The notes under the pieces are model-generated. The model searched no databases, had not been told where the DNA came from, and saw only the letters and a list, made by a program, of their open reading frames with translations. 64,000 nucleotides of DNA from a virus. Taxonomy: Duplodnaviria > Heunggongvirae > Uroviricota > Caudoviricetes. Positions 6,301 through 52,386 of the stretch are shown piece by piece. The DNA is taken from the IMG/VR virus record IMGVR_UViG_3300027007_000013; one strand, given 5' to 3'. The stretch's first letter is position 1, and every line of letters begins with the position of its first letter. A program made the translations under genes and the position numbers.

Positions 6301-6827
6301 CCGATGTGTCCAAGATCGCGAGCAATAGCGTTGATGGCTGGACGGAGATCGACCCGTTCGACCTCGTTAAACTCGAGGAAGTCGCCACCGTGCTCGGCGC
6401 GGTAGACGACCCACTCAAGACCGTCCGTTGCGATCCCATAGTCCGGCCACGCTTTGTTCGAGAGATAATCCTCGACGAGCTCCTGTTCGGCCTGCTCGAT
6501 TTTGTTCGGTGATTTGTTCTCCCCGATCAGAATAAACTCCCCACCCCTCTCGACTATCCGAAAGTCGGGTGCCTCGCGCTGTGTCGTCCCCGCAACGGCA
6601 CGCTGGCTGGCCGGTCGACCAGGTTGGCGGTTGAGTCCGACAGCCTCGATGAGTGGCCATATGAGATGTCCCTCAGTCCACTCCTCTGGCTGATTGTCAA
6701 GATCGGTTATTGTGAGCGTTTCGTCTCTCGCGATCACTCGCTCCACCTTGTGTACATCGTCTACGGTGCTGACGAGTTCGTCGAGAAAGTCTTCGATGAC
6801 TGGTCGAAGATAATGGTCACCTGACAT
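3309..6827 (-). CDS. N6-adenine DNA methyltransferase, large type IIG restriction-modification / BREX PglX-like protein
   Basis: 1172-aa minus-strand ORF with methyltransferase motif X (AYYTPNDV), motif I (ILDPACGSGHFL) and NPPY (IVVGNPPYGD); the only long minus-strand gene. Confidence 0.75.
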   Translation of the reverse strand: MSGDHYLRPVIEDFLDELVSTVDDVHKVERVIARDETLTITDLDNQPEEWTEGHLIWPLIEAVGLNRQPGRPASQRAVAGTTQREAPDFRIVERGGEFILIGENKSPNKIEQAEQELVEDYLSNKAWPDYGIATDGLEWVVYRAEHGGDFLEFNEVERVDLRPAINAIARDLGHIGSGQLGDVDVDEELDAFSSVFEPDNLHTLLTQTAPREFRDTRSANVEEFYELYIELLFGESSEHDYETSLRDDIVAPRGATDKEKDLFAVTLMNRLLFIKFLETRDVLPDGFLRTLVRDYEENKDTVPGTLYETFIKPLFYDLFNAPKDQRNPKLRTGRYDDIPYLNGGLFRENIPNEAQYNLLDRTLPTIIDDLIEGHRLELNGRSFDPAILGSVFEKTINHIGGEEGRQKEIGAYYTPNDVTRHISEHTVDPKIMDIVTEAFIEHSSDDSEEYVRNELSGTDLSEVLRYIEDGVAMYGANPEALKDIRSQLTDLTILDPACGSGHFLTTAMEEIHQVQLSIMRGLNGGDEPSDREKFDAKQELALNVVYGVDVDKVGVEIAKLRVWLKIVEDNGWESGYGPLPNIDVNIVSGNSLVGFPIRGNVQTQLKAIDDRLPGLAEMRRDYKFENEGSRRDIMELESEIRDARDERYLSSLTYTVSTEINSVDELDELVESIPEGDLYPVIESVKAQRLDEDGDTVALTASDKDALSSVGFEWQEWRDTNKSATFDIENRIDSAPTTHLDAGTVGEHESIVEDLRDLLEDGFVFPDVERQPTRYDLNNITGTPLHWDIEFPELLPLDESNGLSSSVSFDIVVGNPPYGDILNQNEDTFIAPYETESINDVSAPFVERQLQLTDENGYFGNITTLRLIYQSSLGEFHDLLRDNLDPAQIACFGFRPSRVFENAHVRVAIITGQKTADDNGDILTSDLILFNQDNRQQRFKDIQYASTDGLILRDSIGGGGTNGPILPKVGPETKRGVLTTLEDHSDTVFRDRYTKDKPDDDVFPVWRREGVLYWINPMLEELYSAREVQPLYFDSEVEQKAAFLVLNSSLYYIYWLTYGNQHHHNWTQLSAFPWPDEDVIEAREDRIIEMADTLWDRMKGTFSKSRESRGDFFMGSLRPIINDVDVLMGELYDLSDEQVEYTQNYLTDLGDNSGRAGTKDSDLTYSRVFADD

Positions 6828-6937: not shown

Positions 6938-7252
6938 GTGGGTAGCGGCCCATATAGGACTATGATTCGCATCGAGTGCGACGAGGCGTACCCATTCCTG
7001 ATGGGGTATCTCACACGTAGTTTCGAGAAAGAGATCGACGGTCAGCGGTGTGGTCCCGAAACGATCATGGCGGCGATGGACGCCGAAGGGGACGAACTGG
7101 TTATGACCGAGCTCCAGGCCAAGTGTGTGGTGGCGCTGTTAGAAGATGGATACGATGTCGAGGAATTGGACAACACGAAGGAAGCCATCGAGAAGTTAGA
7201 ACAGTTGAAAGATGACCTAACCACTGCACTCACTACCACCAGCAGCGGGTGA
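6938..7252 (+). CDS. hypothetical acidic protein
   Basis: 104-aa ORF diverging from the methyltransferase promoter region; ends in the ACCACCAG motif. Confidence 0.5.
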   Translation: MGSGPYRTMIRIECDEAYPFLMGYLTRSFEKEIDGQRCGPETIMAAMDAEGDELVMTELQAKCVVALLEDGYDVEELDNTKEAIEKLEQLKDDLTTALTTTSSG

Positions 7253-7273
7253 TTGAACATGTCAAGAAGGGCT

Positions 7274-7307
7274 GCACGTACATATACACACGCACATATG
7301 TACGTGC
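7274..7307. repeat. 34-bp palindrome GCACGTACATAT-ACACACGCAC-ATATGTACGTGC, copy 1 of 3 identical
   Basis: perfect 12-bp inverted arms; identical copies at 42371 and 63133. Confidence 0.9.
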
Positions 7308-7641
7308 ACTAATCCATGACATGTTTGGGGGTAAATCGGCATGACCCAAATATACCCTTAGAACAAAACGCGATCGGGGGACGGCGACGGGGTCGATTGA
7401 GACTAAGATACCTATACACAGGCAAAGCTTAAGTATGATTAGCGGTTTTTTCACCTCTCACGATCCTTACATCGTGGTACTGGGTACGAAAGTGTTATAT
7501 AGTACGAGAGGTTACTTTTAGGTACATCGAGTTCGGGTTCCTCCGCCCGCTTGATGCATCCCAACGTAAGTTGGACCGACACTCCGTTCCACGCCAAACC
7601 GGGCCCCCCGGTTTCCGCCCTTCCTCAAGGGCTTTTCAGAC

Positions 7642-7791
7642 ATGCCAATCATCCCCGAAGACTGTCCGCGTTGCGACGAAACCCTCGATGTTCAGATATC
7701 ACCAGCTGAGTGTGTACACTGCGGGTTCTTGCTTTATCGCATGAAGTGGAGCGAAAACCTGTATGAGTGAGTGATGGCGTAGCGATATGTA
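7642..7791 (+). CDS. small zinc-ribbon protein
   Basis: 49-aa ORF MPIIPEDCPRCDE...CVHCG with two CxxC pairs; below the ORF-track size cut-off. Confidence 0.3.
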
Positions 7792-8070
7792 ATGCCAGTC
7801 TGTGAGCTGTGCGGGAGAATACGCGCGTCCTGTGTGCTTGGGTTGACCCAGGAGCTACAGGACGACGACTGGCTCCGCCTGGACGTGAGACAGGTGAAGC
7901 TATCGTGCAACCAGTGTGCCGACACGCTGGTGAGTAAAGGGAAAGCAAGGGAAATGCCGTTAGAGGACGGGGATGCGCACGACATCTGGTACAAGAACTG
8001 TCTCGAAATCACAGACGGGAAGCAGTCGATCTGGGCCGGGTGGGTGCCCGATATGCGGAAGATGGTCTGA
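7792..8070 (+). CDS. hypothetical Cys-rich protein
   Basis: 92-aa ORF with CELCG and CNQC pairs. Confidence 0.4.
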   Translation: MPVCELCGRIRASCVLGLTQELQDDDWLRLDVRQVKLSCNQCADTLVSKGKAREMPLEDGDAHDIWYKNCLEITDGKQSIWAGWVPDMRKMV

Positions 8071-8519
8071 AAGTTTTCTGTAGTTGTGTCCAAGTTTAGT
8101 TGTGAAAGTGGGTTTGGACTGAGTGCAAGCTGGGTTGCGTTTGTGTATGGAAAGTGTCTCGTTTTGCTGAGGGGGGTGAAATCGCTATAGGGGAGTGGAT
8201 TTTGGATAGGGAGATTTTCGGACAAAATCGAGAGATGCTCGTTTAGAGACGCCGCTATTCGGTGGATACAGGCCTCCTACGGGCCTTCTGTGGGCACTTC
8301 AGATCGTCTACGAAGGGCACTCTCGGGGCTTCTCGGGCCTGTTTAGAGGCCGACGAAGCACTATGCGTGGATTCTGTGGCGCGGTATTTGGACGTTTGTC
8401 TATATATTCGCCCAGGACGCGATCTGCGACGTCGTCGGTGCGCCCAGGCGCTCCTGGTGGTAGCACGACGGGTGCGCGCGAACTGTCGATGGAGGGTCCA
8501 GAGTGCTCGTTCTCGCAAA

Positions 8520-8705
8520 AACGCTATCCCAGAGGCGCGTGCCGGCTTCGCGCCGCACCCCGCCGACTGTCGCCGTTGGCTCCTGTCGCCTATCCCTGAG
8601 CTCGTTATTGTCGGCGCGCTATCCCTGTGTCGTGCCGTTCTCGTTATCCTGCTCGCGCTATCCCTGCGCCGAGTGTGCTCGTTGGCGTGAAATGCATATC
8701 CCTTG
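8520..8705. repeat. iteron cluster 1: six copies of CGCTATCCC(TG) interleaved with GCTCGTT
   Basis: direct repeats at about 8522, 8588, 8618, 8643, 8658 and 8695, in a non-coding stretch upstream of the cassette array. Confidence 0.8.
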
Positions 8706-8908
8706 CTATGCGATGTGGAGACATTCCCAGTGCGACGTCGTCGTCTTCCTGTCCACACTCTATCACTATGCCTCACGATGATTGAACGCGCCCCAGCGCC
8801 GGAAACCGGCAACGGCGTGACACCCATCGAACCATGCTACGTCTGTCGATTACCAGCAGTCCTATCAGATATACATATATTTAATACCTTACCAGTCCAA
8901 GGATAAGT

Positions 8909-9277
8909 ATGGCAAGAAAAAGCCACCCGGCGGAGCAGACGTGGGACGAGCGGGTCGTCGAGCAGCTGGAGTCGCTCGAGTACGTCGAGCACGTGCACCT
9001 GGACGGCGGCGAGCGCGACTACATCGCGGGACAGCGCGACGTCGACCGCATGACGTGGGTCGTGAAGCTGGACGAGTCGACGATCCAGCAGATCGAGTTC
9101 GTGGAGGGCGCCGACGAGTTCAGCGAGACGCTGCGGGGCGTGCGCAACGACCTGGAGCTGGAGCTGGGCCTGGCGCCGGGCGACTCGTGGATGGAGTGGG
9201 ACGAGATGGCACGCGGGACGATCTACGTGACGGGCACGCACGACAACCGCCCGGGCGGGAGCGACGTCTTCCGCTGA
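8909..9277 (+). CDS. cassette protein with MARKSHP N-terminus, acidic
   Basis: ATG lies inside the conserved 5' hairpin; 122 aa. Confidence 0.55.
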   Translation: MARKSHPAEQTWDERVVEQLESLEYVEHVHLDGGERDYIAGQRDVDRMTWVVKLDESTIQQIEFVEGADEFSETLRGVRNDLELELGLAPGDSWMEWDEMARGTIYVTGTHDNRPGGSDVFR

Positions 9278-9397
9278 GCGCGGCGTGGCGCGGTTACCCG
9301 GCAACGGTTGGCGTCGAGGGACGTCGGTGGTTCGAGTCCACCGCCGGGCGTTGGGCCGAAAAGACCCGGGACTGGCCCGCCCGAACGGAGCGACAGA

Positions 9398-9702
9398 TGA
9401 GTGAAGAACTCGCGCCCGCGGCGGAGCGGGCACTGGCGGAGGAGCACAGGGACGAAATCGCGCTGACGATCATCGACGACGCCGTCGAGCTGTACGAGCT
9501 CGTGTCGCGTGTCGGCCTCATCGCCGAGGATGCAGCCGCCGAGCTCGAGTTCGTCGACGAGCAGGAGGGCTCGATCGACGACGTCCACATGGCGGTCGAC
9601 ATCCTGAACGAGCTCGACGACAAGCTCGTGTACATGAACCGACAGAAGCGTCATGTCGAGAGCCTGCTGAACGAGCTGGAGCTCGTCGAGGAGGACCTGT
9701 AG
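9398..9702 (+). CDS. hypothetical acidic protein
   Basis: internal ATG of ORF 8941..9702; the upstream part of that ORF is a GC-frame artifact overlapping 8909..9277. Confidence 0.5.
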
Positions 9703-9703
9703 A

Positions 9704-9871
9704 TGCCCGAGATCGAGGTGTCGGGCGACGTCGTCAAGGCGCGCCACTTCGGCGAGGTTGATGGCGAGTACGCGAAGCTCGTTGTCCACCGCGACCTGCT
9801 GGCTGACGACGAGAAGGCGACCGTCATCCTCGACGAGATGCGTGACGCGATCGCGCAGGAGGGCCGCTGAT
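9704..9871 (+). CDS. hypothetical small protein
   Basis: 55-aa ORF MPEIEVSGDVVKARHFGE..., tightly packed in the operon. Confidence 0.4.
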
Positions 9872-10067
9872 GCACGACACGTGTCAGTGTGAGGCGTGCA
9901 AGCTGGAGCGCCAGCGCGAGTACGAAGCGTCGTACCCCGAGCAGGCGCGGCGGGACAAGCTGGAACTGGGCGCTGAGGCGACGACCGAGTTCGCCCGCGA
10001 GGAGGCGCTGCTGCTGAAGACGGGGATGACCGAGCGCGACGCGCGGGCCCGGGGGCTGATCGACTGA
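9870..10067 (+). CDS. hypothetical small protein
   Basis: 65-aa ORF overlapping the upstream stop. Confidence 0.45.
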   Translation: MHDTCQCEACKLERQREYEASYPEQARRDKLELGAEATTEFAREEALLLKTGMTERDARARGLID

Positions 10068-10233
10068 TGACCGCGATGGACGACCTGCGCGTCGAGCGAC
10101 AGCACTCGCGCTACGCGGTCGCGTTGGAGAACATCGAGGCGCTCGCGCACGACGGGCTCGAGCAGATGAGCGTCGAGGAGAAAGACGCGATCCTGCGTGA
10201 GATCGAGACGGTCGCGACGGAGGCGTTCGAATG
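10066..10233 (+). CDS. hypothetical small protein
   Basis: 55-aa ORF MTAMDDLRVERQH... Confidence 0.4.
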
Positions 10234-10662
10234 AGCCGTCCGGCGGAGAAACGCGCGGCCGCGATGATGGAGTTGCTGGAGGAGGACGGGACGATGAGCG
10301 AGGGACACGACGACTCGACCGACCCGGAGTGTTGGCGGGAGTCGTTCCTGGAGAGTGCGTTCGAGGAGGCGTCGACGATGGTGACCCGCGCTTCGATGGC
10401 GTACGACGAGGAGCACGGTGAGATGAACGACGAGATGCACCCGATGGACGTCATCCGCGGGGAGAACCTGCTCCGCGTCTACGCGACGAGTCGGCCGTGG
10501 GCGATCCCGGTCGTGGTGGTCGAGGTCGCAGAGGCGCCGGCGTACTTCGACGAGCACAGCATGCTGACCGACGTTCGGGAAGTGTACGCCCGACGAAAGC
10601 CGGGGCTGTCGGAGGACCCGACGCACGTGAAGATCCAGATTCGTCCCGGGAGGCCACGGTGA
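10231..10662 (+). CDS. hypothetical acidic protein
   Basis: 143-aa ORF. Confidence 0.5.
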   Translation: MSRPAEKRAAAMMELLEEDGTMSEGHDDSTDPECWRESFLESAFEEASTMVTRASMAYDEEHGEMNDEMHPMDVIRGENLLRVYATSRPWAIPVVVVEVAEAPAYFDEHSMLTDVREVYARRKPGLSEDPTHVKIQIRPGRPR

Positions 10663-10835
10663 GCGACGTGGCGCGCGAACCCGGTGAGTCGTCGGTGGCC
10701 GAGATGTCGACGGAGTCGCTGCTGTTCCAGACGGCGATGAACGATCGCTATGGTGGCGAGGTCGCCGACCTGATCGACTGGGATCTCGACGTGGAGATGC
10801 GTCGCGAGCTCGCGTCGCGAGGTGTCGAATGGTAG
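10659..10835 (+). CDS. hypothetical small protein (GTG start)
   Basis: in-frame GTG abutting the upstream stop. Confidence 0.35.
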   Translation: MSDVAREPGESSVAEMSTESLLFQTAMNDRYGGEVADLIDWDLDVEMRRELASRGVEW

Positions 10836-10940
10836 TGTACGCCGCGACAGCCCTGGTCGTCTGGCTCGGTGGCCTGTTCGTCCTGTGGCTCGTGTTCATG
10901 GGGACGAAGCAGACAATCGAGCACAGGAGGGCCGAGTGAT
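10832..10940 (+). CDS. small hydrophobic single-pass membrane peptide
   Basis: MVVYAATALVVWLGGLFVLWLVFMG..., 36 aa. Confidence 0.3.
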
Positions 10941-11199
10941 GGCGAACTTCGGATGGTCGTACCCACCGGGCGCGGCGAACGACCCGGCGGCGCCGTACAA
11001 CGAGCCCGAGCGACCCGAGCCCGGGACTGTGATCACGCACGACGTCGCGGAGGCGTACTGCTCGACCTGTGACGAGACGATCGGGCCGCAATCACCGGAC
11101 GTCGTCGCGGACATGCTCGTCGCAGAGCACGAGGGGCACCTCGTCGAGGTGGAGTCGTGGACGGAGGAGGAAGTGTGGGAGGGTGACGATGCCCGGTAG
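10939..11199 (+). CDS. hypothetical protein with CxxC
   Basis: 86-aa ORF containing CSTCDE. Confidence 0.45.
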   Translation: MANFGWSYPPGAANDPAAPYNEPERPEPGTVITHDVAEAYCSTCDETIGPQSPDVVADMLVAEHEGHLVEVESWTEEEVWEGDDAR

Positions 11200-11353
11200 C
11201 TACGAGCGCCACCTGGACGAGTTCGGCATCTGTCGCTGCGGGGCGTCCCGCTCGGGAACGGAGCCGATGTCGCTGGAGTACCAGGACGACATGACCGGGC
11301 GATGGGTAATCGAGCAGGTGCCGGCGTGCGCTGACTGTTTCGGGCTGCTGTAG
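11189..11353 (+). CDS. hypothetical Cys-rich small protein
   Basis: 54 aa, with CRCG...CADC. Confidence 0.4.
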   Translation: MPGSYERHLDEFGICRCGASRSGTEPMSLEYQDDMTGRWVIEQVPACADCFGLL

Positions 11354-11762
11354 CCCAGCGCCCTTTCCGCTTTCGCGCGCCGCCCCGCGCCCGCCCTGTC
11401 TGGTCCGTCAACTCCGCGAGGTGATAGTAGAGGATCTGATTAAATGCAGGAATCGTGATGTGAATACAACCCATCTACCCCCACCGCCGTGGGCCCTACT
11501 CGGCGACGCCTTCTGACGGCCGTAGCCCCTACCCTCCAGGGTTGGCTCACGGCCCCCCACGCCCCGTGTACCGGGATTCATGCGCCTGTCTACGCCTGTC
11601 TCATTTCATACTCTCCGATGATACGACCCCCTCTGTTTCATCTCCGCGACCCGTCGCGTCAAACCGGCGGTGTATCAGATAGTAGAAACATTTAATATCG
11701 TATCACTCCAAGGATAAGATAGGACACCGGTCAAAACCGGTGGCCAACTGGAGTGACCAGAG

Positions 11763-12221
11763 ATGGCAAACGAGACCCAGGCGACTGAGGCACAGCAGAC
11801 GACCATCGCGGGCGACGTCGACGTCGTCGACCCAACGCAGCACGTCGTGGGCTTCAACGCGAAGACGATGAAGCGCGCGAAGTGGGAGGAGTACGACTTC
11901 GTGGTGACGGAGTCCGGCAACGTCGAGGTGCGCAACGCGTCCTACGGGGACGACGCGGACGAGCACACGTACCACGTGGTGACTGACGCCGCGGGCATCC
12001 CGAAGTGGTGCCTGCACGCGCTGAGCGACGCGCACGAGGACGACTGGAAGCCGTGCCCGGCGATGGCCTACCACGCGGCGAAGAAGAACAAGGCGACGGG
12101 CCTCGAGACCGACGAGCTCGTGGCGCGGGGCGAGTACAGAGTGTGCAAGCACGCTCTCGCCTACGCGCGCAACGAGGCGATCGTTCAGGCGGTCCGCCGC
12201 GTCAAGCAGGGTGACAACTGA
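11763..12221 (+). CDS. SWIM-type zinc-finger-like protein
   Basis: C..H...C..CKH pattern (KWCLHALSDAHEDDWKPCPAMAYH...CKHALAY); preceded by a 5'-hairpin variant and a GGAGTGA Shine-Dalgarno-like element. Confidence 0.5.
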   Translation: MANETQATEAQQTTIAGDVDVVDPTQHVVGFNAKTMKRAKWEEYDFVVTESGNVEVRNASYGDDADEHTYHVVTDAAGIPKWCLHALSDAHEDDWKPCPAMAYHAAKKNKATGLETDELVARGEYRVCKHALAYARNEAIVQAVRRVKQGDN

Positions 12222-12412
12222 TGTCGTGCCCGAATTGCGGCGGGGAGACCGGGCCGAACCCGGTGCGCGACGACCCGCGGACGCCGGCGATGGGCGGGCA
12301 CGATCCGGGACCGACCGTCGTGTTCTGCTCGGCGGAGTGTGTCGAAACGTATGACGGCGACCCCGTGCCGGCCACGTGGGGCATCGCTATCAGCAGCCCG
12401 GAGGGACAGTGA
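12221..12412 (+). CDS. small zinc-ribbon protein
   Basis: MSCPNCGG...CSAEC. Confidence 0.45.
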   Translation: MSCPNCGGETGPNPVRDDPRTPAMGGHDPGPTVVFCSAECVETYDGDPVPATWGIAISSPEGQ

Positions 12413-12639
12413 TGTTCCTGTTGGATGTCTACGCGGACGCTCACGACGAGTACCCGGTGCGGACGCTCGAGGCGACTGGTGTGGGGACGGCGGTGCTGAC
12501 GGCGGCCCGGACGGCCGAGTCCCTCGCGGACGAAGCGTGCCGGCTCCAGGTCGGCGCTGCTGGCGAGGATGAACTGTTCGAGATGTTCCCCGACCCGGGG
12601 CATGGGACCGTGGTGGTCCGGGAGGTCGGTCGCCGATGA
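12412..12639 (+). CDS. hypothetical protein
   Basis: ATG overlapping the upstream TGA. Confidence 0.4.
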   Translation: MFLLDVYADAHDEYPVRTLEATGVGTAVLTAARTAESLADEACRLQVGAAGEDELFEMFPDPGHGTVVVREVGRR

Positions 12640-12830
12640 ACGACGTCGAGTACGCGCTCTCCTGTGTCGAGATCGTGCACGGCTACCGCGATTACGTTCC
12701 GGAGGAGGTGCTGATGGGCGAGCCCGAGGTCGAACGGTTCGACAGTGCAGTGGCGAAGCTCGAACGCGCGATCGAGATGATCGATCCCGACGACCTCGCA
12801 GCCTACCACCAGCAGCGGGAGGCCGAGTGA
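12636..12830 (+). CDS. hypothetical acidic protein
   Basis: 64-aa ORF. Confidence 0.45.
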   Translation: MNDVEYALSCVEIVHGYRDYVPEEVLMGEPEVERFDSAVAKLERAIEMIDPDDLAAYHQQREAE

Positions 12831-13009
12831 TGGTGGCCCGGCCGCGGCGCTGGATGGTGGTGACCGACGCCTGGACTGACGCTGAGTCGCCCGTGTTCCG
12901 TCGCATCCGGTCGAAGTTGGAGGCGCACAAGCTGGCACAGTTAACCGTGCGAGCGTACGACGATGGACGCCCGGTCGATGTCGTGGAGGACCTGAGCGAT
13001 GAGCGGTAA
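12830..13009 (+). CDS. hypothetical protein
   Basis: internal ATG of ORF 12569..13009. Confidence 0.4.
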   Translation: MVARPRRWMVVTDAWTDAESPVFRRIRSKLEAHKLAQLTVRAYDDGRPVDVVEDLSDER

Positions 13010-13124
13010 CGTGCGCTGGCGGGGCCAGGAGTTCGGCGACGGCCAGTTCATCGTCTGGGAGGGTGACCCGAACACGTCGAAGGCGTACGTGGCCGGGACG
13101 CCAGTCCCGAACGAGCCCTGAGCT
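13002..13124 (+). CDS. hypothetical small protein
   Basis: 40-aa ORF followed by the conserved 3' boundary element. Confidence 0.3.
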
Positions 13125-13333
13125 GTTCCGCTTTTGCGCCGCGCCCCGCCGCTCGCCGACCCTGTCGTGTTTTCCTGTCGCCCCCTCGCGCGGCGTGGTG
13201 CGGCAACCCGGTGCCCTTGCGATGTCTCGGGTTTACCAGCAGTATCAAGTTATTAACATATCTTTATACTCGCTCCTCTCTTAGGTTAGGATAGGCACTG
13301 GGGAAACCCGGTGGCCATCTGGAGTGAAATCGA

Positions 13334-14998
13334 ATGGCAAGCAGTGACAACGACGTGGAGTACAGCACGGGACAGATCGGCGTCGACGAGGAGCGTATCA
13401 TCGACGAGCTGATCTTCAGCCAGGCGGAGGGCATCGTCGACGGCATCCGCGAGCTGGCGCAAAACGGCGTCGACGCACCCGGCTCGACGAAGGTCGAGAT
13501 CAACGTGACCCCGGAGCGGACGGTCGTGGTCGACGACGGAGACGGGATGGACCTGAGCGACGAGTCGGTCCGGGAGTTCCTGACGAACCTGGGCCAGTCG
13601 ACGAAGATCGACGATGAGGAGACGATTGGCCAGTTCGGCATCGGCTTCGGTCAGGCGCTGGCGGTCGGGAAAGTGATAGTGCACAGCCAGGACTCGAAGG
13701 TCGAGTTCGACGCGAAGAACTGGTTCCGCGACTACCGGCTGTACGAGGCCGAGGAGCACTTCGACGGCACGAAAGTGACGATCGAGCACTACGAGGACGA
13801 GGTGCCCGAGGCGGGCGCGAGTGAGTGGTCCGACCACCTCGCCGACATCCGCACCCGGTTCCAGTACATGGAGCTGGTCAAGGGCGTTGAGGTGTGGCTG
13901 AACGACGAGCAAGTATCCGGATACGACCCGGCTGAGGACGATGAGAACGCCACCGTCTACGACTCGGAACTGGCGTACATGGTCCTGAAGCACGAGAGTT
14001 ACGACTGGATAACGGTGTACTCGGCGGGCCTGAAAGTCACGGACGTCCGCGGCCACGGCATCGGGGGCACCGTGATCACGAAGCGCAACCTCGAGCTGAA
14101 CACGGCGCGGAACAGCATCCGGTCTGGGTGCGAGGTCTGGCCCGAGGTCGAGGCCGAGATCGAGGAGGCACGTGTCGAGCTCCTGGACGCCGTCTCTGAT
14201 TCGAAGCTGACGAACAGTGGTCGCGCGGCCGTGGGCCGCCTGGCCGCCCAGGGACACGAGGGGTTCGAGGACCGCGAAGTGTTCAAGCTGGCGAACGGTG
14301 AGATGACCACCCTCGAGACGATCCAGAGCCGAGACAGCATCATGTTCGCTGACCAGACGGACAAGGCCGGGGGCAAGCTGGCTGACCACGGGAAGACCGT
14401 CCTGATGCGCAGCGATGGCGCGGTTCAGGCGATTCGGGAAGCGGTGAACCTCGGTCAGCTGAGCATCCCGGAGACGAAAGACGTCCAGGCGTCGGCGGCC
14501 GCGATGGGCATCGCGAACGGCTACGAGATCCTCGAGCCCGAGGAGTTCCACAGCAAGCCCCTGGCGATGGCCCGCATCCTGCGGGAGAAGATGGAGCAGT
14601 ACAGCCCCTACGCGCTGGACCGGGAGATCGTGGCCGGAGCGGATAGCGGGGCCAACGCGTGGACGAAGCCGGACCCGTCGACCCTGAACCCGGTGGAGAC
14701 GGCGGCGATCGCCGACTCTGAGTTCGAGTCGTTCGTCGCGATCACGGACACCGCCTACAGCCAGTTGGCGAGCGAGGTCCTCGTGCTCGAGCTGTGGCGC
14801 ATCCTGGCTCACGAGTTCGCCCACACGGAGGATTCGACGGGTGAGCCGTCCCACGGGTCGGGCTTCGCGATGCGCTTCCGCAAGATCCTCGACAAGACCC
14901 AGCCGGCGGCCGTCGAGCTCCTGAACGAGATTCGCCAGGATGGTGTCACGGCAACGTTCGAGCGATACGACCACGGCGTCCCACACGCCCGCGCCTAA
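13334..14998 (+). CDS. GHKL-family (Bergerat-fold) ATPase with a C-terminal HExxH motif
   Basis: N-box ELAQNGVDA, G1 VVDDGDGM and G2 GQFGIGFGQA resemble Hsp90/MutL/MORC-type HATPase motifs; C-terminal LAHEFAHTED. Preceded by the cassette promoter and hairpin. Confidence 0.7.
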   Translation: MASSDNDVEYSTGQIGVDEERIIDELIFSQAEGIVDGIRELAQNGVDAPGSTKVEINVTPERTVVVDDGDGMDLSDESVREFLTNLGQSTKIDDEETIGQFGIGFGQALAVGKVIVHSQDSKVEFDAKNWFRDYRLYEAEEHFDGTKVTIEHYEDEVPEAGASEWSDHLADIRTRFQYMELVKGVEVWLNDEQVSGYDPAEDDENATVYDSELAYMVLKHESYDWITVYSAGLKVTDVRGHGIGGTVITKRNLELNTARNSIRSGCEVWPEVEAEIEEARVELLDAVSDSKLTNSGRAAVGRLAAQGHEGFEDREVFKLANGEMTTLETIQSRDSIMFADQTDKAGGKLADHGKTVLMRSDGAVQAIREAVNLGQLSIPETKDVQASAAAMGIANGYEILEPEEFHSKPLAMARILREKMEQYSPYALDREIVAGADSGANAWTKPDPSTLNPVETAAIADSEFESFVAITDTAYSQLASEVLVLELWRILAHEFAHTEDSTGEPSHGSGFAMRFRKILDKTQPAAVELLNEIRQDGVTATFERYDHGVPHARA

Positions 14999-15280
14999 GC
15001 GGGCCGTGGCGCGGCAACCCGGCGTCGGACCGGCGTGATGCTGCGGATCGAATCCGCCCGACGTCCTGGCGGCCTTCGCTACTGTCAAGTGAAGTGACCG
15101 CCTACACCCGCCTGGATGGGTCGGAGCCGTTTGTGGTAGGCTCATAGGCGGTGCGCCCGACCCGTCCCACTCCAGGTGGCCACGGCGTTTGCGATCGGGC
15201 TGGCTCCCTCGGGAGCTAAGTGGTCGCGACCGCGGGGTATCGCTCCCCGTGTCACCTTTCGTACTGATTGCTCTGATACC

Positions 15281-15318
15281 GTGTACGTACGTACAGACGC
15301 GTGTGTACGTACATACAG
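15281..15318. repeat. GTACGTAC-containing palindromic element (variant of the 34-bp palindrome family)
   Basis: GTGTACGTACGTACAGACGCGTGTGTACGTACATACA, downstream of the GHKL gene. Confidence 0.6.
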
Positions 15319-15416
15319 CCTTTCGGAATCCTGACTTGTCAGAACCCTTTATTACCGTATCCTGAGAAGGATTACATGGACCTCGAGAAAGCCGAGGCCA
15401 GCTGGAGTGACCAGAG

Positions 15417-15728
15417 ATGACAGATACAGCACGACTTGTCGTGAATGGCTATGTGGAACCGAGCGAGCGAGATACCCGAATTGTGTCGATCCTGGGGAGT
15501 CTGGCCGGCGTCCCGGACGGCCACCAGTTCGACTATCGCGGGATGACGATCGAAAAGCGCGTGACGACCGAGCGAGCGCGGCGCGAACCCGAGATCGCTG
15601 TCTACGACCCTGACGGCGAGTACGTCGACCAGTTCCAACCGCTCCTGTTCTCGTCGTACGAGATCGTGGAGATGCTCGACGAGATGCGAGCCTACTGGGT
15701 CGAGGAGAGTCGCGCCACGGCACTGTGA
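15417..15728 (+). CDS. hypothetical acidic protein
   Basis: preceded by a 14-codon upstream ORF (15376..15420) inside the hairpin module and a GGAGTGA element. Confidence 0.5.
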   Translation: MTDTARLVVNGYVEPSERDTRIVSILGSLAGVPDGHQFDYRGMTIEKRVTTERARREPEIAVYDPDGEYVDQFQPLLFSSYEIVEMLDEMRAYWVEESRATAL

Positions 15729-15860
15729 TCGTGGCCGCGACAGCGGTCGCAGTCGTGGTCGTCGGCCTGTGGCTGTTCTACGCCCTGGTCGTCTACCTCG
15801 AGTTGTGACCGAAAACTGGTATTTACCGCGTGGGGCCTACCGTGACATGGAGTACCAGAG

Positions 15861-16181
15861 ATGCCCCGACCGATCGAACGGATGGGTTGTGTTGCCGACC
15901 GACTGAGCGACGAGTGGGAGCTCGATGACATCGTGATCGAGCCGTCGGCGACCGTGACAGCAATCTACCGTCACGTATCCGGGGCGTACGTCATGTGGTC
16001 GGCCGACCCGGGACACACGGTACAGTTGTGGGAGGCCGACGGATCGGTCGAGACGTGGCTCGATGACGACGAGTTCGCTGACCTGGATTCGGCGACCGAA
16101 ACTGTCCAGACCTGCGTGGAAGTCATCGAACATGCGACCAACCGCGCCCTACCACCAGCAGCGTCGACCCCGCGCCCGTAA
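15861..16181 (+). CDS. hypothetical acidic protein
   Basis: 106 aa, with the GGAGTACCAGAG leader. Confidence 0.5.
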   Translation: MPRPIERMGCVADRLSDEWELDDIVIEPSATVTAIYRHVSGAYVMWSADPGHTVQLWEADGSVETWLDDDEFADLDSATETVQTCVEVIEHATNRALPPAASTPRP

Positions 16182-16356
16182 CGTTCCGCTTTTCCGCACC
16201 GCCTGCGCCAACCTGTCGACTTCCCGATTCAGTCTGACCTTGCTACGTTGTGTGATTACGGGCAAACACCTCAGATATACATATATTAATATTCACTCCA
16301 CCCTTAGGTAGAAGTAGGCCAGGAAAACTGGCCCACCCGAACGGAGATAGAGAAAG

Positions 16357-16506
16357 ATGCGATACAGAGTCTACGGTACGCACAGTGGCAACGAGTTTCA
16401 GGCACCTGTCGACGCAGTCGATGCGAGTGACGCGGTCGACGAGTTCCTCGAGTCGGTCGAGGACCCGACCGAGTTCAGCGACGTCGAGGCCGAGGTCTGG
16501 GGGTAG
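16357..16506 (+). CDS. hypothetical small acidic protein
   Basis: 50-aa ORF 10 nt after the GGAG that follows a hairpin variant lacking an ATG. Confidence 0.4.
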   Translation: MRYRVYGTHSGNEFQAPVDAVDASDAVDEFLESVEDPTEFSDVEAEVWG

Positions 16507-16509
16507 CCG

Positions 16510-16680
16510 ATGTCTGGCGAACCCCACACGGGCCCGATCGACGCACACGTGTGCGAGCTCGAACCGCTCGATGGCGACGAGTTCGCGACCGTCCACAGCA
16601 AGGGCCAGTGCACGATCTGCGGGACCGTGACGACGCCGGCCCGGGGCGTGAAGAACGCGAAGCGACAGCGGATGTGGTAG
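16510..16680 (+). CDS. small zinc-ribbon protein
   Basis: CELEP...CTICG. Confidence 0.35.
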   Translation: MSGEPHTGPIDAHVCELEPLDGDEFATVHSKGQCTICGTVTTPARGVKNAKRQRMW

Positions 16681-16682
16681 CG

Positions 16683-16991
16683 ATGGAGACAGAGAACGTC
16701 GCGATCGTCTCGCTGGAGGCGGCTGAAGTTGCCCGACGCGAGTTGGACATCCTGATTGAACAGACTGGCGGCCCGAACGCCGGGATCGATGAGTCGTGCT
16801 CGCCGATGGCCCTCGCGCGCCAACGCATCGAGCGCCTGGAAGGCGAAGGGATAGACCCGTTCACCGTGGCGACTGTGCTGCAAGTCATGTACGGCGTCGC
16901 GGAGGAGCGTGGTGTCGAGATCAGTAGCGCCGACCCGTTGCAGGACGACGTCTTCCGGGCACGAAGCGAGTTCGAGTCGGATCTCGAGTAG
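16683..16991 (+). CDS. hypothetical acidic protein
   Basis: internal ATG of ORF 16551..16991. Confidence 0.45.
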   Translation: METENVAIVSLEAAEVARRELDILIEQTGGPNAGIDESCSPMALARQRIERLEGEGIDPFTVATVLQVMYGVAEERGVEISSADPLQDDVFRARSEFESDLE

Positions 16992-17398
16992 TCTCGACCC
17001 TGCTGCGGTTTGCATCGTTCCTGGTGGTAGTGAGCGGTTCGATTCCGTGACGATGCCTGGCCCCCGAGCCCTCAGACGATACGTTGATAGGTTCGCGGGG
17101 CCTATGCTCACGCGGCATCCGTTAGTGATGCCGTTCCGTTCGGGTGGGATAGCACGCGTCGGGCTGTCTCGGCAAGGGCAACCACGTCAGTCGAGATCAG
17201 AGGCTCGTGCAAACCCGTTGCCCGGGGCATTTGTCCCCGGGCGCCCTTTGGTACCGCCTCGAGCGAGAGCTCTTGTTCTCTGACATCGCGTATCCGCGCC
17301 CGAGCGCGCAAACCCGGTGTGATCATGCTACGATCCTGTTCTATCAGCAATATTATCTGACAAAGATATTATTATATCAGCTCCAGCCTAAGGTAAAG

Positions 17399-17520
17399 TA
17401 TGGCACGAAAAAGCCACTCGAGCGGAGATAGCGTGAACAAGCAGCGGTACCGCGGCAACGAGTCGACCGCCGACTTCGACCTGGGCGACGCACTGAGCCA
17501 GATCTCGGAGAGCCGCGAGG
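17399..17520 (+). CDS. small acidic protein, MARKSH start
   Basis: 40-aa ORF beginning inside the hairpin element. Confidence 0.35.
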
Positions 17521-17532
17521 AGGACGAGGACG

Positions 17533-17742
17533 ATGAGTGAGCGCATGCACCGGGAGCCGAGCAAGTTCTCGGCTGACGAACTGTCAATCGGCGACGAGAT
17601 CGTGGTCGCTGGCCTCGTCCACGAGGTCATGTCGGTGGGAGAGCCCGGGAAGCAGTGCCTCGTGCGGACGGACCGGGGCGCGTTCTCGAAAGACGGCCTG
17701 AGTAGCGGGATCGACGACGGCTCCGTGGAGGTGCGCGACTGA
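17533..17742 (+). CDS. hypothetical protein
   Basis: 69-aa ORF. Confidence 0.45.
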   Translation: MSERMHREPSKFSADELSIGDEIVVAGLVHEVMSVGEPGKQCLVRTDRGAFSKDGLSSGIDDGSVEVRD

Positions 17743-17942
17743 TGCCGATGGCATGGGGCCTCGACGAGTCGTGCCCAGACTGTGGCGAGGACGAACTGAT
17801 CTGGTGGACGAAAGACGAGACTGAACGTGTCGACGAGGTGAAGGTGGACTGCACCGCCTGCGGGATGGCGTTCCCGAAGGAGATCGTCGAGAAGACTGAC
17901 GACACTCCTCGCGAGGAGATTGCACGGGGGATCGTCGCATGA
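17742..17942 (+). CDS. zinc-ribbon protein
   Basis: CPDCGEDE...CTACG. Confidence 0.45.
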   Translation: MPMAWGLDESCPDCGEDELIWWTKDETERVDEVKVDCTACGMAFPKEIVEKTDDTPREEIARGIVA

Positions 17943-18565
17943 GCTTCGAGTTCGACGAGGACTACGAGCTCGATGCGATGTTCGAGGGCGCGACCGAGTT
18001 CGACCCCGAGTACCAGCGCGAGCGGATGCGCGAACAGCTGGAGATCGCGGCCTGGGACATCCGTGAGGGACACGTCGAGGACGGCGAGACTTGGACGATC
18101 GAGGAGCCCAGCGTGCTGACGCCGGACCCGCTCGACGACACCGACTTCGAATGGACGCTGCGCTTCGACGACATCGACGTGCTCGGTGACGAGAGTGTTC
18201 CCGGTGTGTTCGAAGTGATGGACCCGGAGGGAGAGTACGCCGGTCAGTTCGGTGCGTACGAGGATGGCGAGGAGCTGTTGAACGCGCTGGGCCACATCGC
18301 CCAGACGTTCCACCGCGACCGGGAGATCGCGAAGTTCCACGCCCGCGTCGACGAGATGGAGCCCGGCGACAGTCACCTGCTCCCGAGTGGGAAGATCGAG
18401 CTGCGCGATGCCGAGAAGGCCGCGATCTTCGGCCCGGGTTACGAGGAGCGGGTCGTGACCAACGCCGACAAAGTGACGCCGAAACTCGTCAAGCGCGTCG
18501 AGGGCGACTGGCGGGCTGAGATGCGCGAGAAGTACCGCGGGACCCCGATGGAGGAGGAGTTCTGA
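17939..18565 (+). CDS. hypothetical acidic protein
   Basis: 208-aa ORF. Confidence 0.55.
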   Translation: MSFEFDEDYELDAMFEGATEFDPEYQRERMREQLEIAAWDIREGHVEDGETWTIEEPSVLTPDPLDDTDFEWTLRFDDIDVLGDESVPGVFEVMDPEGEYAGQFGAYEDGEELLNALGHIAQTFHRDREIAKFHARVDEMEPGDSHLLPSGKIELRDAEKAAIFGPGYEERVVTNADKVTPKLVKRVEGDWRAEMREKYRGTPMEEEF

Positions 18566-18741
18566 ATGACCTACGAGATTCCGGCCAACGCAAGTGACAG
18601 AGACGAACGTATCGCCGAGCGGATGAACGAGATGCTGTTCAACGAGTTCGACATCCCGCTCGATGATTTCGAGATCCTGAGTGAAGAAGCAGGCTCGTTC
18701 GAGATCACGATCGAACCAGGTGTCGGGACGGTGGACTGATG
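18566..18741 (+). CDS. hypothetical small protein
   Basis: 58-aa ORF. Confidence 0.4.
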
Positions 18742-18879
18742 GGCGTCCCCGTGGGTGAGGCTGATGGTGAGTTCGCTGTGGAGCTGACGTGCGTCGCCTG
18801 TGAGGGCACGTTCGAGACCGATGAGACGATGCCCAACGATTGCCCCGAGTGTGGGCGGCTGAGCTACACCGCGGCCTGA
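18739..18879 (+). CDS. small zinc-ribbon protein
   Basis: CVACEG...CPECG. Confidence 0.35.
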   Translation: MGVPVGEADGEFAVELTCVACEGTFETDETMPNDCPECGRLSYTAA

Positions 18880-18947
18880 CCGCGCTCCGCTTTTGCGCAC
18901 CGCCCCGTCGAATGAGTTATCAGTTTTGCGGTAGTATCGCCGAATAG

Positions 18948-19460
18948 ATGAGTGACGATCGCAAGCCGTGGGAGAACCCCGTGACGCTGGCGCGGGCCTA
19001 CGCCGAGTACGGCTCGGCTGAAGGCGTCGCTGACGCCTGGGGCTGTTCCGAACGGACGATCCGAACGTGGCTGCACGAGCACGACGAGATCCGCGTCAAG
19101 CGACAGGGTCGACGGCCGAGCTGGGAAGACACCGAGCCCCCGAACCACGTCCTCGAAGACGACGAGGGCTACGAGATCGTCGAGGCGTTCGTTCCCGTCC
19201 GCGACGACCGTGGCGAGCTCGTGAAGATCGAACGCAAAGCCGTCCGCATGCACCGGCTGATGTGTGTCCTCGAGTGGGGGTTCGACGCCGTCTGCGACAT
19301 GGAAGTGCATCACCAGGATGGAATGAAGTTGCATAACTTGCCGCGGAACCTGGTGCCGCTCGATCACCTGACGCACGCGAACATGCAGACGCATCGGCGC
19401 TGGCGGATGCCCTGGGTCGGTGACTACGAACAGGGCGACCCCGGCCCAGTGGACGCGTAG
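18948..19460 (+). CDS. HNH endonuclease with N-terminal HTH
   Basis: HTH-like GVADAWGCSERTIRTWL; HNH core EVHHQDGMKLHNLPRNLVPLDHLTHANMQTH. Confidence 0.6.
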   Translation: MSDDRKPWENPVTLARAYAEYGSAEGVADAWGCSERTIRTWLHEHDEIRVKRQGRRPSWEDTEPPNHVLEDDEGYEIVEAFVPVRDDRGELVKIERKAVRMHRLMCVLEWGFDAVCDMEVHHQDGMKLHNLPRNLVPLDHLTHANMQTHRRWRMPWVGDYEQGDPGPVDA

Positions 19461-19474
19461 TGGGTTACGTCTGG

Positions 19475-19620
19475 TGCGTATCCCACGTGTCGCGCGCGTT
19501 TCACGGGTCGCGTATCCCGCGCGCGTTATCCCAGGTGCGTATCCCGGGCCCTCGTTCTCGTGTACAGCGTATCCCTTGTGAGAGCACGCGAGAGCCCTCT
19601 CCCCCAGTAGAGATACGCAC
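19475..19620. repeat. iteron cluster 2: five direct copies of GCGTATCCC plus one inverted copy
   Basis: copies at about 19477, 19510, 19523, 19537, 19567, with an inverted copy at 19611; immediately 3' of the HTH-HNH gene. Confidence 0.8.
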
Positions 19621-19761
19621 CCTTCGCATATCAATCGAGTTACGTAAGCAGCTATTGCCGATTCGGCGCCCCAGCGCGGCAACCCGGTGATTGCCAACCC
19701 CTAATCTATGACTCATGTTGATAAAGAAACACTTAATATCCCTCCACTCTTAGGTTAAGAT

Positions 19762-19923
19762 ATGGGACAAAAATCCCAACTCGGGCGGAACGAGGTACAG
19801 AGCGTCAAAATTGAAACGCAGGGCTCCCATGCTACGCTCTCACACATCGAGGGCGTGTGGATCGAGGATGGAGAGCTGGTCATCCGCACCCTCGAGGACT
19901 TGCCAATTCACGGAGAAATCTGA
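19762..19923 (+). CDS. small cassette protein, MGQKSQ start
   Basis: 53-aa ORF starting in the hairpin. Confidence 0.4.
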   Translation: MGQKSQLGRNEVQSVKIETQGSHATLSHIEGVWIEDGELVIRTLEDLPIHGEI

Positions 19924-21179: not shown

Positions 21180-21209
21180 GTACGTACATACGCGCCCATA
21201 TGTACGTAC
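21180..21209. repeat. palindrome GTACGTACATA-CGCGCCCA-TATGTACGTAC (family variant)
   Basis: perfect 11-bp arms. Confidence 0.8.
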
Positions 21210-21330: not shown

Positions 21331-21693
21331 ATGGAAGCCAAAAACTTCCCACCGCGAACGGTGCAGAGCGCAGAGCCAACCGACGTCGTCGAAGAAGACG
21401 GCTACCGAGTCCTGACGTACGAGGACGTCGACGTCGACATTCGGATCTCGCGGACGATCAGCCCCGAGACGCCGAAAATCTGGGTCGCCGGCGACCGACT
21501 CGACACGCAAGTGGAGACGGTGACCGACGTCGAGTTCCTCGGCTTCGAGCTCTGGCGATACACCTACCTCGAGGGTAAGCCGACCCATGCCGGTGAGGGT
21601 CGACACCGAGGCCGATTCGCCGAGGTCGAGATCGAGGAGAATCACTACGGCGAAGACGAAGTCCACGAGTTCAGCCTCAGGGTCAAGCGGTAG
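21331..21693 (+). CDS. cassette protein, MEAKNFP start
   Basis: 120 aa. Confidence 0.55.
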   Translation: MEAKNFPPRTVQSAEPTDVVEEDGYRVLTYEDVDVDIRISRTISPETPKIWVAGDRLDTQVETVTDVEFLGFELWRYTYLEGKPTHAGEGRHRGRFAEVEIEENHYGEDEVHEFSLRVKR

Positions 21694-22478: not shown

Positions 22479-22844
22479 CGCCGACCAGCGCACTACCACC
22501 AGCAGCGGCTGGCCTGCGCACCGGTTTTCCGCCGTGCCCCGTCGCCCACGTGACCCTCGTTTCCGCTCCGCCCGCGACTGTCTCGTGCGATCGTCGCGCC
22601 CTGCTTGCGTACGTGTCCCCCCACTGTTACGCTCGTCACGCCTGCGTTCGCGGCCTGTGCTATCCGCGTCCGACCCCTGTTTCATCTCCGCGTGCCAAGG
22701 CGCGGCAACCCGGTGGCGTCCCCGTCAGCAAACGGGCCCTTTCTGCAAGCAATCCGACACTGAAATCTATAAAACGCTGTCTCAAGCCCTCTACACGAGG
22801 ATTTAGACCAGAACCTTTATATCAAATCAAGTTCAAGAAGAAGT

Positions 22845-35460: not shown

Positions 35461-35477
35461 CCACTACCACCAGAAGC

Positions 35478-35514
35478 GTGTGTACGTACATACGCGCCCA
35501 TACGTACATACACC
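35478..35514. repeat. GTACGTACATAC repeat element (palindrome-family variant)
   Basis: GTGTGTACGTACATACGCGCCCATACGTACATACAC, directly after an ACCACCAG motif. Confidence 0.6.
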
Positions 35515-35532
35515 CCCTGAAGCCCTCCCCAA

Positions 35533-42370: not shown

Positions 42371-42404
42371 CGCACGTACATATACACACGCACATATGTA
42401 CGTG
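42371..42404. repeat. 34-bp palindrome, copy 2 of 3 identical
   Basis: identical to 7274..7307. Confidence 0.9.
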
Positions 42405-52255: not shown

Positions 52256-52386
52256 AAGAAAGAGTTCTATTGGCACACAGTCTTGCGATTAGAACAGGTA
52301 AGAAAACAGAAACATATTTTACCTCCTACTGCATACATAGATTACCCACCGGGCACAGGGCCTGGTGGCGTGGAACGGAGTTACTG

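Follow-up and report, generated by a model that had tools for sequence, protein, structure and literature searches.

Do two clusters of a short oriented repeat, lying about 11 kb apart in the genome of a tailed virus, mark a replication origin, or are they sites at which a regulator is bound? The question is raised by a stretch of 64,000 nt (IMG/VR record IMGVR_UViG_3300027007_000013; here called the window), for which a sequence-only reading had proposed two groups of iterons forming an origin or operator arrays. The motif, its position and its orientation are conserved in three genomes and the spacers have diverged, which supports the shared part of that proposal, namely direct repeats that would be bound by a protein. 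With regard to function, the tentative reading given here is that the arrays are bound by a regulator or an architectural protein of the virus, which would act on the block of early genes. The operator or activator half of the proposal fits better, as all sites lie upstream of early promoter cassettes, but both arrays stand 160-180 bp from the TATA elements of those promoters.

Repeat units and their conservation in three genomes

Both clusters were found where the sequence-only reading had placed them, with plus-strand copies of TATCCC within 8525-8702 and 19479-19575, and their density is non-random. TATCCC occurs 16 times on the plus strand of the window and 6 times on the minus strand, and 10 of the 16 plus-strand copies fall within the two clusters. 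The highest number of copies per 200 bp in 300 first-order Markov simulations of the window was three (reached in 2 of the 300 runs), as compared to five observed twice. The consensus proposed earlier, YGCGYTATCCC, proved too strict, its literal pattern matching only three times. The recognition unit is bipartite and ~25 bp long, consisting of a left box C(T/G)CGTT(AY), a free spacer of 12-13 bp and a right box (C/G)TATCCC(W)G. The pattern CGTT-N12-13-TATCC is present nine times on the plus strand (eight of them in the clusters) and never on the minus strand, the expectation being 0.16 per strand. GCTCGTT, which had been taken for a separate element interleaved with the iterons, is the left box of this unit and always stands 13 nt ahead of TATCCC. 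The left box resembles a weaker version of the right box (GTTAYC vs GCTATC), and a unit may be seen as a direct pair of GYTAYC-like half-sites at a distance of 13-14 bp. The copies of the motif are given below, where scores refer to a position-weight matrix (PWM) built from 26 units of the three genomes.

8506-8702, plus strand: iteron array A, five 25-bp units at 8506-8530, 8572-8596, 8601-8625, 8640-8664 and 8678-8702
19460-19575, plus strand: iteron array B, four full units with their last bases at 19484, 19518, 19545 and 19575, and one half-unit CGTTATCCC at 19524-19532
17272-17296, plus strand: solitary unit C (CTTGTTCTCTGACATCGCGTATCCG), PWM score 13.1, abutting the 5' extension of promoter cassette #5
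22642-22666, plus strand: weak candidate for a solitary unit D, CGTT-N12-TATCC with an A-type GCTATCC, which may be due to chance
19609-19621, minus strand: inverted near-copy (GGTGCGTATCTC), a 10-nt inverted match to B1 and B3, probably no functional iteron

All full units of arrays A and B are direct and on the plus strand. The boxes of array A read C(T/C)CGTT(AY) on the left and (C/A)TATCCC(W)G on the right, separated by a 13-nt spacer; TATCCC starts at 8525, 8591, 8620, 8659 and 8697, giving start-to-start spacings of 66, 29, 39 and 38 bp, and the right boxes are CGCTATCCC (three copies), GCCTATCCC and GCATATCCC (one each), the A-type box being CTATCCC. Array B carries the right boxes GCGTATCCC (four copies) and CGTTATCCC (one copy), the B-type box being GTATCCC, with spacings of 34, 14, 13 and 30 bp. 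It comprises ~8 half-sites with a period of 13-16 bp, and Tandem Repeats Finder detected a 27-bp tandem substructure. Six direct copies had been counted in cluster A, of which five stand as full units, the sixth (GTTATCC at 8643) being the left half-site of the fourth unit. The five direct right boxes of cluster B were upheld, and the inverted copy reported beside them was not counted as an iteron because its block is conserved in the Halobaculum relative without the motif: 8 of 9 bases match at 19610-19618, and the homologous block reads GAGGTACGAGCC. The solitary unit at 17272-17296, the candidate at 22642-22666 and the degenerate units and inverted cores in the leader of region A had all been missed. 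Screening of the large intergenic regions of the window for repeats revealed no further arrays.

The comparison covered three genomes, i.e. the window, an ENA/IMG-VR relative and a Halobaculum plasmid. The first relative is a metagenomic virus represented by IMGVR_UViG_3300027007_000012 (88.6 kb) and the ENA contig ORDC01000044 (154.8 kb), which are identical over the compared region and share ~79% amino-acid identity with the window. The second, NZ_CP058532.1, is a circular replicon of 148,857 bp recorded as 'plasmid unnamed3' of Halobaculum halophilum Gai3-2, and its homologue of the ATPase of the window is ~66% identical. It encodes a terminase, baseplate J, tape-measure protein, PolB, ligase, UvrD, ribonucleotide reductase (RNR), ThyX and 25 tRNAs. 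This viral gene content on a circular replicon indicates a virus genome in plasmid form, and NZ_CP058532.1 thus appears to be a complete myovirus-like genome kept, or at least assembled, as a plasmid, i.e. an apparent archaeal virus-plasmid. In both relatives array A follows the same zinc-ribbon gene and a conserved leader, and array B directly follows a gene for a helix-turn-helix (HTH)-HNH protein.

ENA/IMG-VR relative, segment L001 5636-5840: syntenic array A
Halobaculum plasmid, segment L134 5738-6035: syntenic array A
ENA/IMG-VR relative, segment L002 6505-6612: syntenic array B
Halobaculum plasmid, segment L134 16336-16405: syntenic array B

The flanks of the arrays are 77-82% identical at the DNA level between genomes; the array DNA itself has diverged beyond alignment and only the boxes are kept. 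The information content over the 26 units is 1.0-2.1 bits in the boxes and ~0 in the spacer. Variants specific to each array are kept in all three genomes, (G/C)CTATCC in A and CGTATCCC or GTTATCC in B, at copy numbers of 5, 5 and 5 units for A and 4.5, 4 and 2-3 for B. The sole regular array is B of the ENA relative, which is a 27-bp tandem array. Regular-expression scanning of NZ_CP058532.1 retrieved six units, none of them outside the two arrays; four lie at 73444-73700 and two at 84042-84096, and the arrays are 10.6 kb apart in this replicon. A fifth unit of array A at 73715-73740 (left box CCTGTT) was found by the PWM scan only. The PWM scan further added unit C, which lies at the syntenic spot in all three genomes (Halobaculum copy 82239-82263, PWM score 19.9, 1.8 kb upstream of the second array), and one isolated minus-strand match near 10826. 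Short recognition boxes that keep their positions thus appear to be under selection, with everything else turning over rapidly; this points to clustered protein-binding sites rather than to chance or coding sequence. Further relatives were sought by motif, where three IMG/VR pattern scans gave only unrelated tandem or coding repeats, and by protein, where only the ENA/IMG-VR virus and the Halobaculum plasmid were syntenic and remoter ATPase homologues lay in unrelated integrated elements.

Other explanations of the repeats were rejected. Chance clustering of the motif was ruled out by simulation and synteny. Protein-coding repeats were discarded since the open reading frames (ORFs) across array A (e.g. 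8255-8827, minus strand, 190 aa) are arginine-rich and fail the filter of GC content by codon position; the homologous gap in Halobaculum is without a called gene and its indels are not multiples of three. A CRISPR array or mini-array does not agree with identity confined to two short boxes per 25-bp unit, a variable interior and irregular spacing. TATCCC as the target of the type IIG restriction-modification enzyme of the window was rejected as the Halobaculum relative keeps the arrays and lacks that gene.

Promoter cassettes and candidate regulators

The sites are tied to a family of promoters. A cassette of ~95 bp recurs in ~16 copies on the plus strand between 8831 and 26810 (nhmmer E 1e-23 to 0.02), and conserved upstream boxes, an element resembling TATA and a leaderless ATG are common to all copies.

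8831, 11644, 13214, 16237, 17323, 19684, 20032, 20634, 20954, 21251, 22021, 22813, 23695, 24260, 25640 and 26765, plus strand: cassette starts (nhmmer)
8831-8926, plus strand: promoter cassette #1, TATA at ~8880, leaderless ATG at 8909, nhmmer E=1.9e-21, downstream of array A
17323-17417, plus strand: promoter cassette #5, nhmmer E=7e-20, downstream of unit C, starting the operon that ends in the HTH-HNH gene
19684-19778, plus strand: promoter cassette #6, ATG at 19762, nhmmer E=1.1e-14, downstream of array B

Array A, unit C and array B occupy the upstream side of cassettes #1, #5 and #6, respectively, in the same orientation as transcription. The non-coding stretch that had been noticed around the first cluster, just before the cassettes, is an 840-bp non-coding region (8071-8908) followed by the coding sequence of cassette #1, and the array ends within it at 8702, 129 bp before the cassette. 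Likewise, the second cluster does follow the HTH-HNH gene at once, as had been reported: array B begins just past its stop codon and ends at 19575, 109 bp before cassette #6. Candidate unit D is ~35 bp ahead of the GCGCGGCAACCCGGTG box of the cassette at 22813. All sites being upstream of cassettes, co-oriented with transcription and almost nowhere else in the complete genome, they are read as binding arrays. They are intergenic, promoter-upstream and kept at orthologous promoters amid divergence, as is expected of operators or upstream activating sequences.

From the anatomy and conservation observed we infer protein binding, a regulatory role, looping and the identity of possible binders. 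A virus-encoded sequence-specific DNA-binding protein would recognize the bipartite units and would bind as a multimer at array A, unit C and array B, possibly bridging the three sites. Such binding could set, insulate or time the expression of the first ~11 kb of the 16-promoter early cassette array, with the bound protein serving to repress or silence (while the element is in a plasmid or carrier state), to activate at a given time or to insulate.

Several points weigh against this regulatory interpretation. Characterized archaeal activators and repressors usually act beside or over the B recognition element (BRE), the TATA box or the transcription start site (TSS). Here array A ends at 8702 and the TATA is at ~8880, array B ends at 19575 and the TATA is at ~19733, and even unit C, ~80 bp from the TATA of cassette #5, does not abut BRE, TATA or TSS. 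Sites are present at only 3-4 of the 16 cassettes, and ten half-sites in a long conserved non-coding region are more elaborate than a typical operator. The PWM scan revealed no autoregulatory site at any candidate regulator gene, and for the cognate binder there are only candidates. Neither the window nor the 10 kb to each side of it gave an orc1 gene, the canonical origin discussed below being known from the relative only, and the comparison set of three genomes is small.

The candidate binders put forward here are the products of the three genes listed below and an XRE-type HTH (HTH_3) protein encoded at 667-1302, which is 68% identical to its homologue. The sequence-only reading had named four HTH proteins (18948, 667, 45550 and 46011) as candidates, to which the BAT/HTH_10 protein is added as a fifth.

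18948-19460, plus strand: HTH-HNH endonuclease gene (Pfam HTH_23, PHROG 7545 HNH), ending 0-4 bp before array B
7792-8070, plus strand: gene for a 92-aa CxxC...CxxC zinc-ribbon protein, the last gene before region A, present in all three genomes
56353-57009: BAT/HTH_10 regulator of 218 aa, in a low-GC (0.52) stretch left 'non-coding' by the filter on GC content at third codon positions (GC3)

The HTH-HNH protein is 76% identical to its Halobaculum homologue overall and ~88% in the HTH region, which exceeds the value for the ATPase, and the adjacency of its gene to array B is kept in three of three genomes. The zinc-ribbon protein shares 92% identity with that of the ENA relative and 64% with that of Halobaculum, and has no Pfam or PDB match; PDB sequence searches with both the HTH-HNH and zinc-ribbon proteins gave nothing significant. 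The BAT/HTH_10 protein is only 36% identical to its Halobaculum homologue; its family is typical of haloarchaea and therefore supports the host assignment.

In function, the nearest analogues are the repeat arrays of global regulators (omega, P1 C1) and two-cluster replication systems (P4 ori/crr). Arrays of oriented protein-recognition repeats are a known kind of element. The omega heptads of pSM19035 are contiguous 7-mers overlapping promoters and also serve partition. With these and the P1 C1 operators the present units share asymmetric short repeats upstream of several promoters of a mobile element, and would share one reader and global control; unlike omega, the half-sites here are 13-14 bp apart, arrays A and B are 160-180 bp from the TATA, and the transcription machinery is archaeal. 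The motif is new, the bipartite units, with two arrays and solitary units tied to an array of promoter cassettes, are unusual, and the element that carries them belongs to a new lineage of archaeal virus-plasmids.

Among haloarchaeal tailed viruses, HF2 likewise has repeated intergenic elements, of which the class I and II repeats carry promoters and have been assayed with bgaH reporter fusions (PMC8707807). These HF2 repeats correspond to the ~95-bp cassettes and not to the TATCCC arrays, and there is no sequence relationship. No report of upstream iteron arrays in HF2-type viruses was found.

A further explanation of the two direct clusters is that they are accessory sites (res- or arm-type) of site-specific recombination, for multimer resolution or excision of the 11-kb block. 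It would suit two multi-site clusters of ~110-200 bp in direct orientation, and the gene order downstream of array B is indeed scrambled between the relatives. This scrambling is explained by recombination among the 95-bp cassettes, however, neither the window nor the annotated complete relative gave an integrase or resolvase, and no contig without the A-B block was found, so we consider such a role extremely improbable.

The cassettes have other features of their own. The GCAACCCGGTGA box common to regions A and B is the 5' extension of most cassettes and was therefore rejected as a part of the iteron module. Each cassette is followed by 1-7 acidic ORFs of small size, whose N-termini are of the type MGQKS, MARKS or MGTKN, and this region exceeds the remainder of the window in GC content (0.61-0.68) and GC3 (0.85-0.95). 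In every cassette the transcript opens, at the ATG or transcription start, with a short hairpin that has an A-rich loop and lies within ~25 nt (e.g. 8909-8926, 19762-19778, 21331-21350 and 11722-11745), followed by CACCC. The stems vary among cassettes (GGCA/UGCC, GGGA/UCCC, GGAAG/CUUCC, CACCGG/CCGGUG, GGCCAG/CUGGCC and GGAAU/AUUCC), and these compensatory changes suggest a conserved 5' RNA or DNA structure at the transcript start.

Replication and maintenance of the relative

The main rival to regulatory sites is an auxiliary or lytic origin, or iterons for replication control, which we judge unlikely. A viral initiator would bind array A together with the partly AT-rich leader at 8071-8407, array B would be a distant enhancer or handcuffing partner, and orc1 with its origin recognition boxes (ORBs) would serve only plasmid-mode replication. 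Iteron origins such as lambda ori, P1 oriR/incA, pPS10 and R6K have bipartite iterons read by two-domain Rep monomers, with a second array for control. The arrays resemble them in having 4-5 direct repeats in one orientation, twice per genome, and in the size of the unit: Rep-iteron origins have at least three direct 17-25-bp repeats in one orientation, as compared to five units of ~25 bp in A and four and a half in B. They differ in that no regular phasing, no adjoining AT-rich element and no recognizable Rep neighbour is present here. In the satellite phage P4, the octamer clusters ori and crr, which are iterons of the alpha protein, stand 4.5 kb from each other beside the gene of the alpha primase-helicase, and it is proven that replication needs them. 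A second, lytic origin is present in phages such as P1 (oriL alongside oriR), and both cases are precedents for an additional origin. P4 shares with the window two separated clusters of one short oriented repeat per replicon, thought to be bridged by one protein, whereas here the units are bipartite with 25 bp, 11 kb separate the arrays, no recognizable initiator gene adjoins them and the complete relative has an Orc1/ORB origin. As this relative has genes for a PolB, a ligase and a UvrD helicase of its own, it could support a second origin, and strong promoters lie 110-160 bp downstream of the arrays, as in the transcription-activated origins of phages T4 and T7.

The non-coding region that holds array A is a further point in favour of an origin, as its left part is conserved, drops locally to 38-47% GC and carries the motif in degenerate and in inverted form.

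8071-8407, plus strand: non-coding leader, 82% DNA identity to the ENA relative, three-way alignable, GC 38-55%

The identity of the leader equals that of the neighbouring genes, and 8408-8829 does not align to the ENA relative. The degenerate units are at 8158-8195 and 8238-8262 and the inverted cores at 8204-8211 and 8264-8270, accompanied by two GGGCAC boxes, and the indels of the leader are not multiples of three. A CTGGTGGTRGCA box stands directly ahead of the first iteron, and a small conserved hairpin (GATTTT-CGGAC-AAAATC) is also present in the leader. No Rfam family matched the leader, and the covariation term of RNAalifold was positive (unfavourable) with three sequences only. The TATA-like TCTATATAT at 8398 was rejected as a promoter reading through array A, since it is not conserved in Halobaculum.

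Against an origin, no AT-rich element abuts the arrays, whose flanks have 55-78% GC in 40-bp windows; in all three genomes the nearest stretch of 35% GC or less is the promoter cassette, 110-160 bp downstream. The irregular spacing departs from the helical phasing of Rep-iteron origins, no Rep, primase or helicase domain was detected in the adjacent ORFs with Pfam and PHROGs (most neighbours being without a detectable family), and a solitary promoter-proximal unit such as C is unexpected for an origin. The GC skew gives no information because it rises monotonically in the window and in the relative, dominated by one-directional transcription.

The complete relative also has a canonical origin elsewhere. 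Haloarchaeal origins consist of ORB repeats inverted around an AT-rich element, with a G-string and an adjoining orc/cdc6 gene (PMC3528665). The Halobaculum plasmid encodes Orc1/Cdc6 at 50187-51431 (Pfam Cdc6_lid, Cdc6_C and AAA), and beside it, at 49.6-50.2 kb, ORB repeats ACACCCCACYGTTTCAAGTGTT (5-6 direct and 2 inverted) flank a lower-GC, AT-rich stretch. By the published features this locus is a canonical haloarchaeal origin, as predicted from its sequence. With the arrays at 73.4 kb and 84.0 kb, it stands 23 kb away from array A, and beside it lie parA and a small gene for its partner. The TATCCC arrays are similar to ORB origins in being repeated protein-recognition boxes in intergenic DNA of a haloarchaeal replicon, but they are all direct, without inversion around an AT-rich element, without a G-string and away from any orc/cdc6 gene (PMC3528665). 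The window gave no match to the ORB of the relative, and IMG/VR gave none to its Orc1. Given the ORB origin elsewhere, the lack of an unwinding element, the irregular spacing and the lack of an adjacent Rep-like gene, the arrays are probably not the main replication origin, and the origin half of the initial proposal is weakened to that extent.

The two functions may also be combined in a virus-plasmid with two systems, in which Orc1/ORB and ParA would provide maintenance and a separate iteron system would provide a lytic origin or a silencing loop. A novel viral protein, perhaps the HTH-HNH protein, would read A, B and the solitary units and either fire the lytic origin or silence the 11-kb block. 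We hold this view to be doubtful and on the whole unlikely; if true, an iteron-type origin or a long-range looping switch would be described for the first time in a tailed virus of archaea.

The plasmid form of the relative suggests yet another role, that of centromere-like partition sites for ParA, possibly also acting as operators. The circular relative does carry parA and a small downstream partner gene, whose product is ribbon-helix-helix-like by eye, and such proteins bind short direct-repeat arrays at several promoter-proximal loci, the omega heptads of pSM19035 being the precedent. However, parA (51914-52708 in Halobaculum) lies 21 kb from one array and 31 kb from the other, no array is beside the par operon, and the sole TATCCC upstream of parA is part of the parA TATA box. 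A different repeat, (GTAC)n/ACGTACATATGT, is present upstream of parA, recurs intergenically in both genomes and is a better centromere candidate, so partition by the TATCCC arrays receives very little credence from us. This palindromic family lies between genes at 7256-7325, 21180-21209, 35482-35495, 42372-42405 and 63152-63165 and, in segment L136, at 2795-2832 (6 matches vs 0.14 expected). One copy is inside an inverted repeat with 30-nt arms at 7256-7325 and another is just upstream of terL. The family could be a second promoter class or a partition site.

The virus, its packaging genes and neighbouring features

The window is part of a new tailed virus (myovirus), or virus-plasmid, of haloarchaea, with a genome of ~150 kb. 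Its genes are nearly all on the plus strand, with the high GC3 and low GC content at second codon positions expected of acidic haloarchaeal proteins. The genes for the terminase large subunit (35533-37176; putative terS and terL together 34786-37176) and the portal protein (37414-39147) are present, and tail genes flank the window. INPHARED yielded no DNA-level match to the window, and no phage protein in it exceeds 31% identity to the terminase large subunit. Rfam and ARAGORN gave no match anywhere in the window.

The position of the terminase genes bears on whether the arrays are packaging or DNA-end signals, i.e. pac/cos sites of the terminase, borders of long terminal repeats or a T5-like injection stop ~11 kb from the entering end. 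Same-orientation arrays bracketing ~11 kb of small early genes (~7% of a ~150-kb genome) recall the terminal-repeat host-takeover regions of T5 and SPO1, the HNH gene is directly before array B and HNH proteins assist some terminases, and several assemblies break near 6963-7890. Yet the putative terS/terL genes are 15-16 kb from array B, the arrays as a whole being 15-27 kb from the terminase genes, the relative was assembled as a closed circle and unit C is left unexplained. The SPAdes coverage of the A-B contig (20.6x) shows no doubling as compared to its neighbours (22.0x and 21.5x), which speaks only weakly against a twofold terminal repeat because replicative DNA would not show doubling. 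A packaging role looks quite improbable.

Regulatory and replication signals in cis are almost unmapped in archaeal tailed viruses, and the motif system described here is precisely delimited in three genomes. Halobaculum halophilum Gai3-2 is a cultured carrier with the element as a 148.9-kb circular replicon, and experiments are therefore directly feasible. Whatever the function, it would show how a large haloarchaeal virus-plasmid organizes 16 near-identical early promoters. Should the arrays be a second origin or a looping switch, a form of control new to archaeal viruses would be revealed; ordinary operators would be a modest gain.

Other genes of the window include the sole large minus-strand gene and a module for nucleotide metabolism and DNA modification, consisting of ThyX (44129-44941), a DpdA-like protein of the DNA 7-deazaguanine modification family (51026-52255) and class II RNR (58586-61576).

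3309-6827, minus strand: type IIG restriction-modification enzyme (Eco57I/MmeI-like), 1172 aa

The type IIG gene is absent at the syntenic position of the Halobaculum plasmid and looks like an inserted defence or counter-defence gene. Midway between the arrays, at 13334-14998, lies the gene for the GHKL/Hsp90-like ATPase of 554 aa, with a C-terminal HExxH (HEFAHTED). Homologues of this ATPase (43-48% identity) are found in integrated haloarchaeal elements, and two of the three retrieved loci are just upstream of a D5-type primase-helicase gene. The Halobaculum replicon, as mentioned, carries orc1/cdc6 with ORB repeats and parA with its small partner gene in addition to its viral genes.

Independent metagenome assemblies break, with ~75-nt overlaps, at ~7747-7823 (ERZ508600 NODE_483 and NODE_424), and two JGI 3300000932 contigs break at ~18957-19029, the start of the HTH-HNH gene; these breaks suggest variants in the population or DNA that is hard to assemble. 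A contig of 320,643 bp (source 'gem') is listed with exact copies of the proteins encoded at 8909-9277 (P0001) and 13334-14998 (P0003). It is about twice the ~150 kb of the relatives and may result from dimeric assembly or from a copy linked to the host, or else be a larger replicon.

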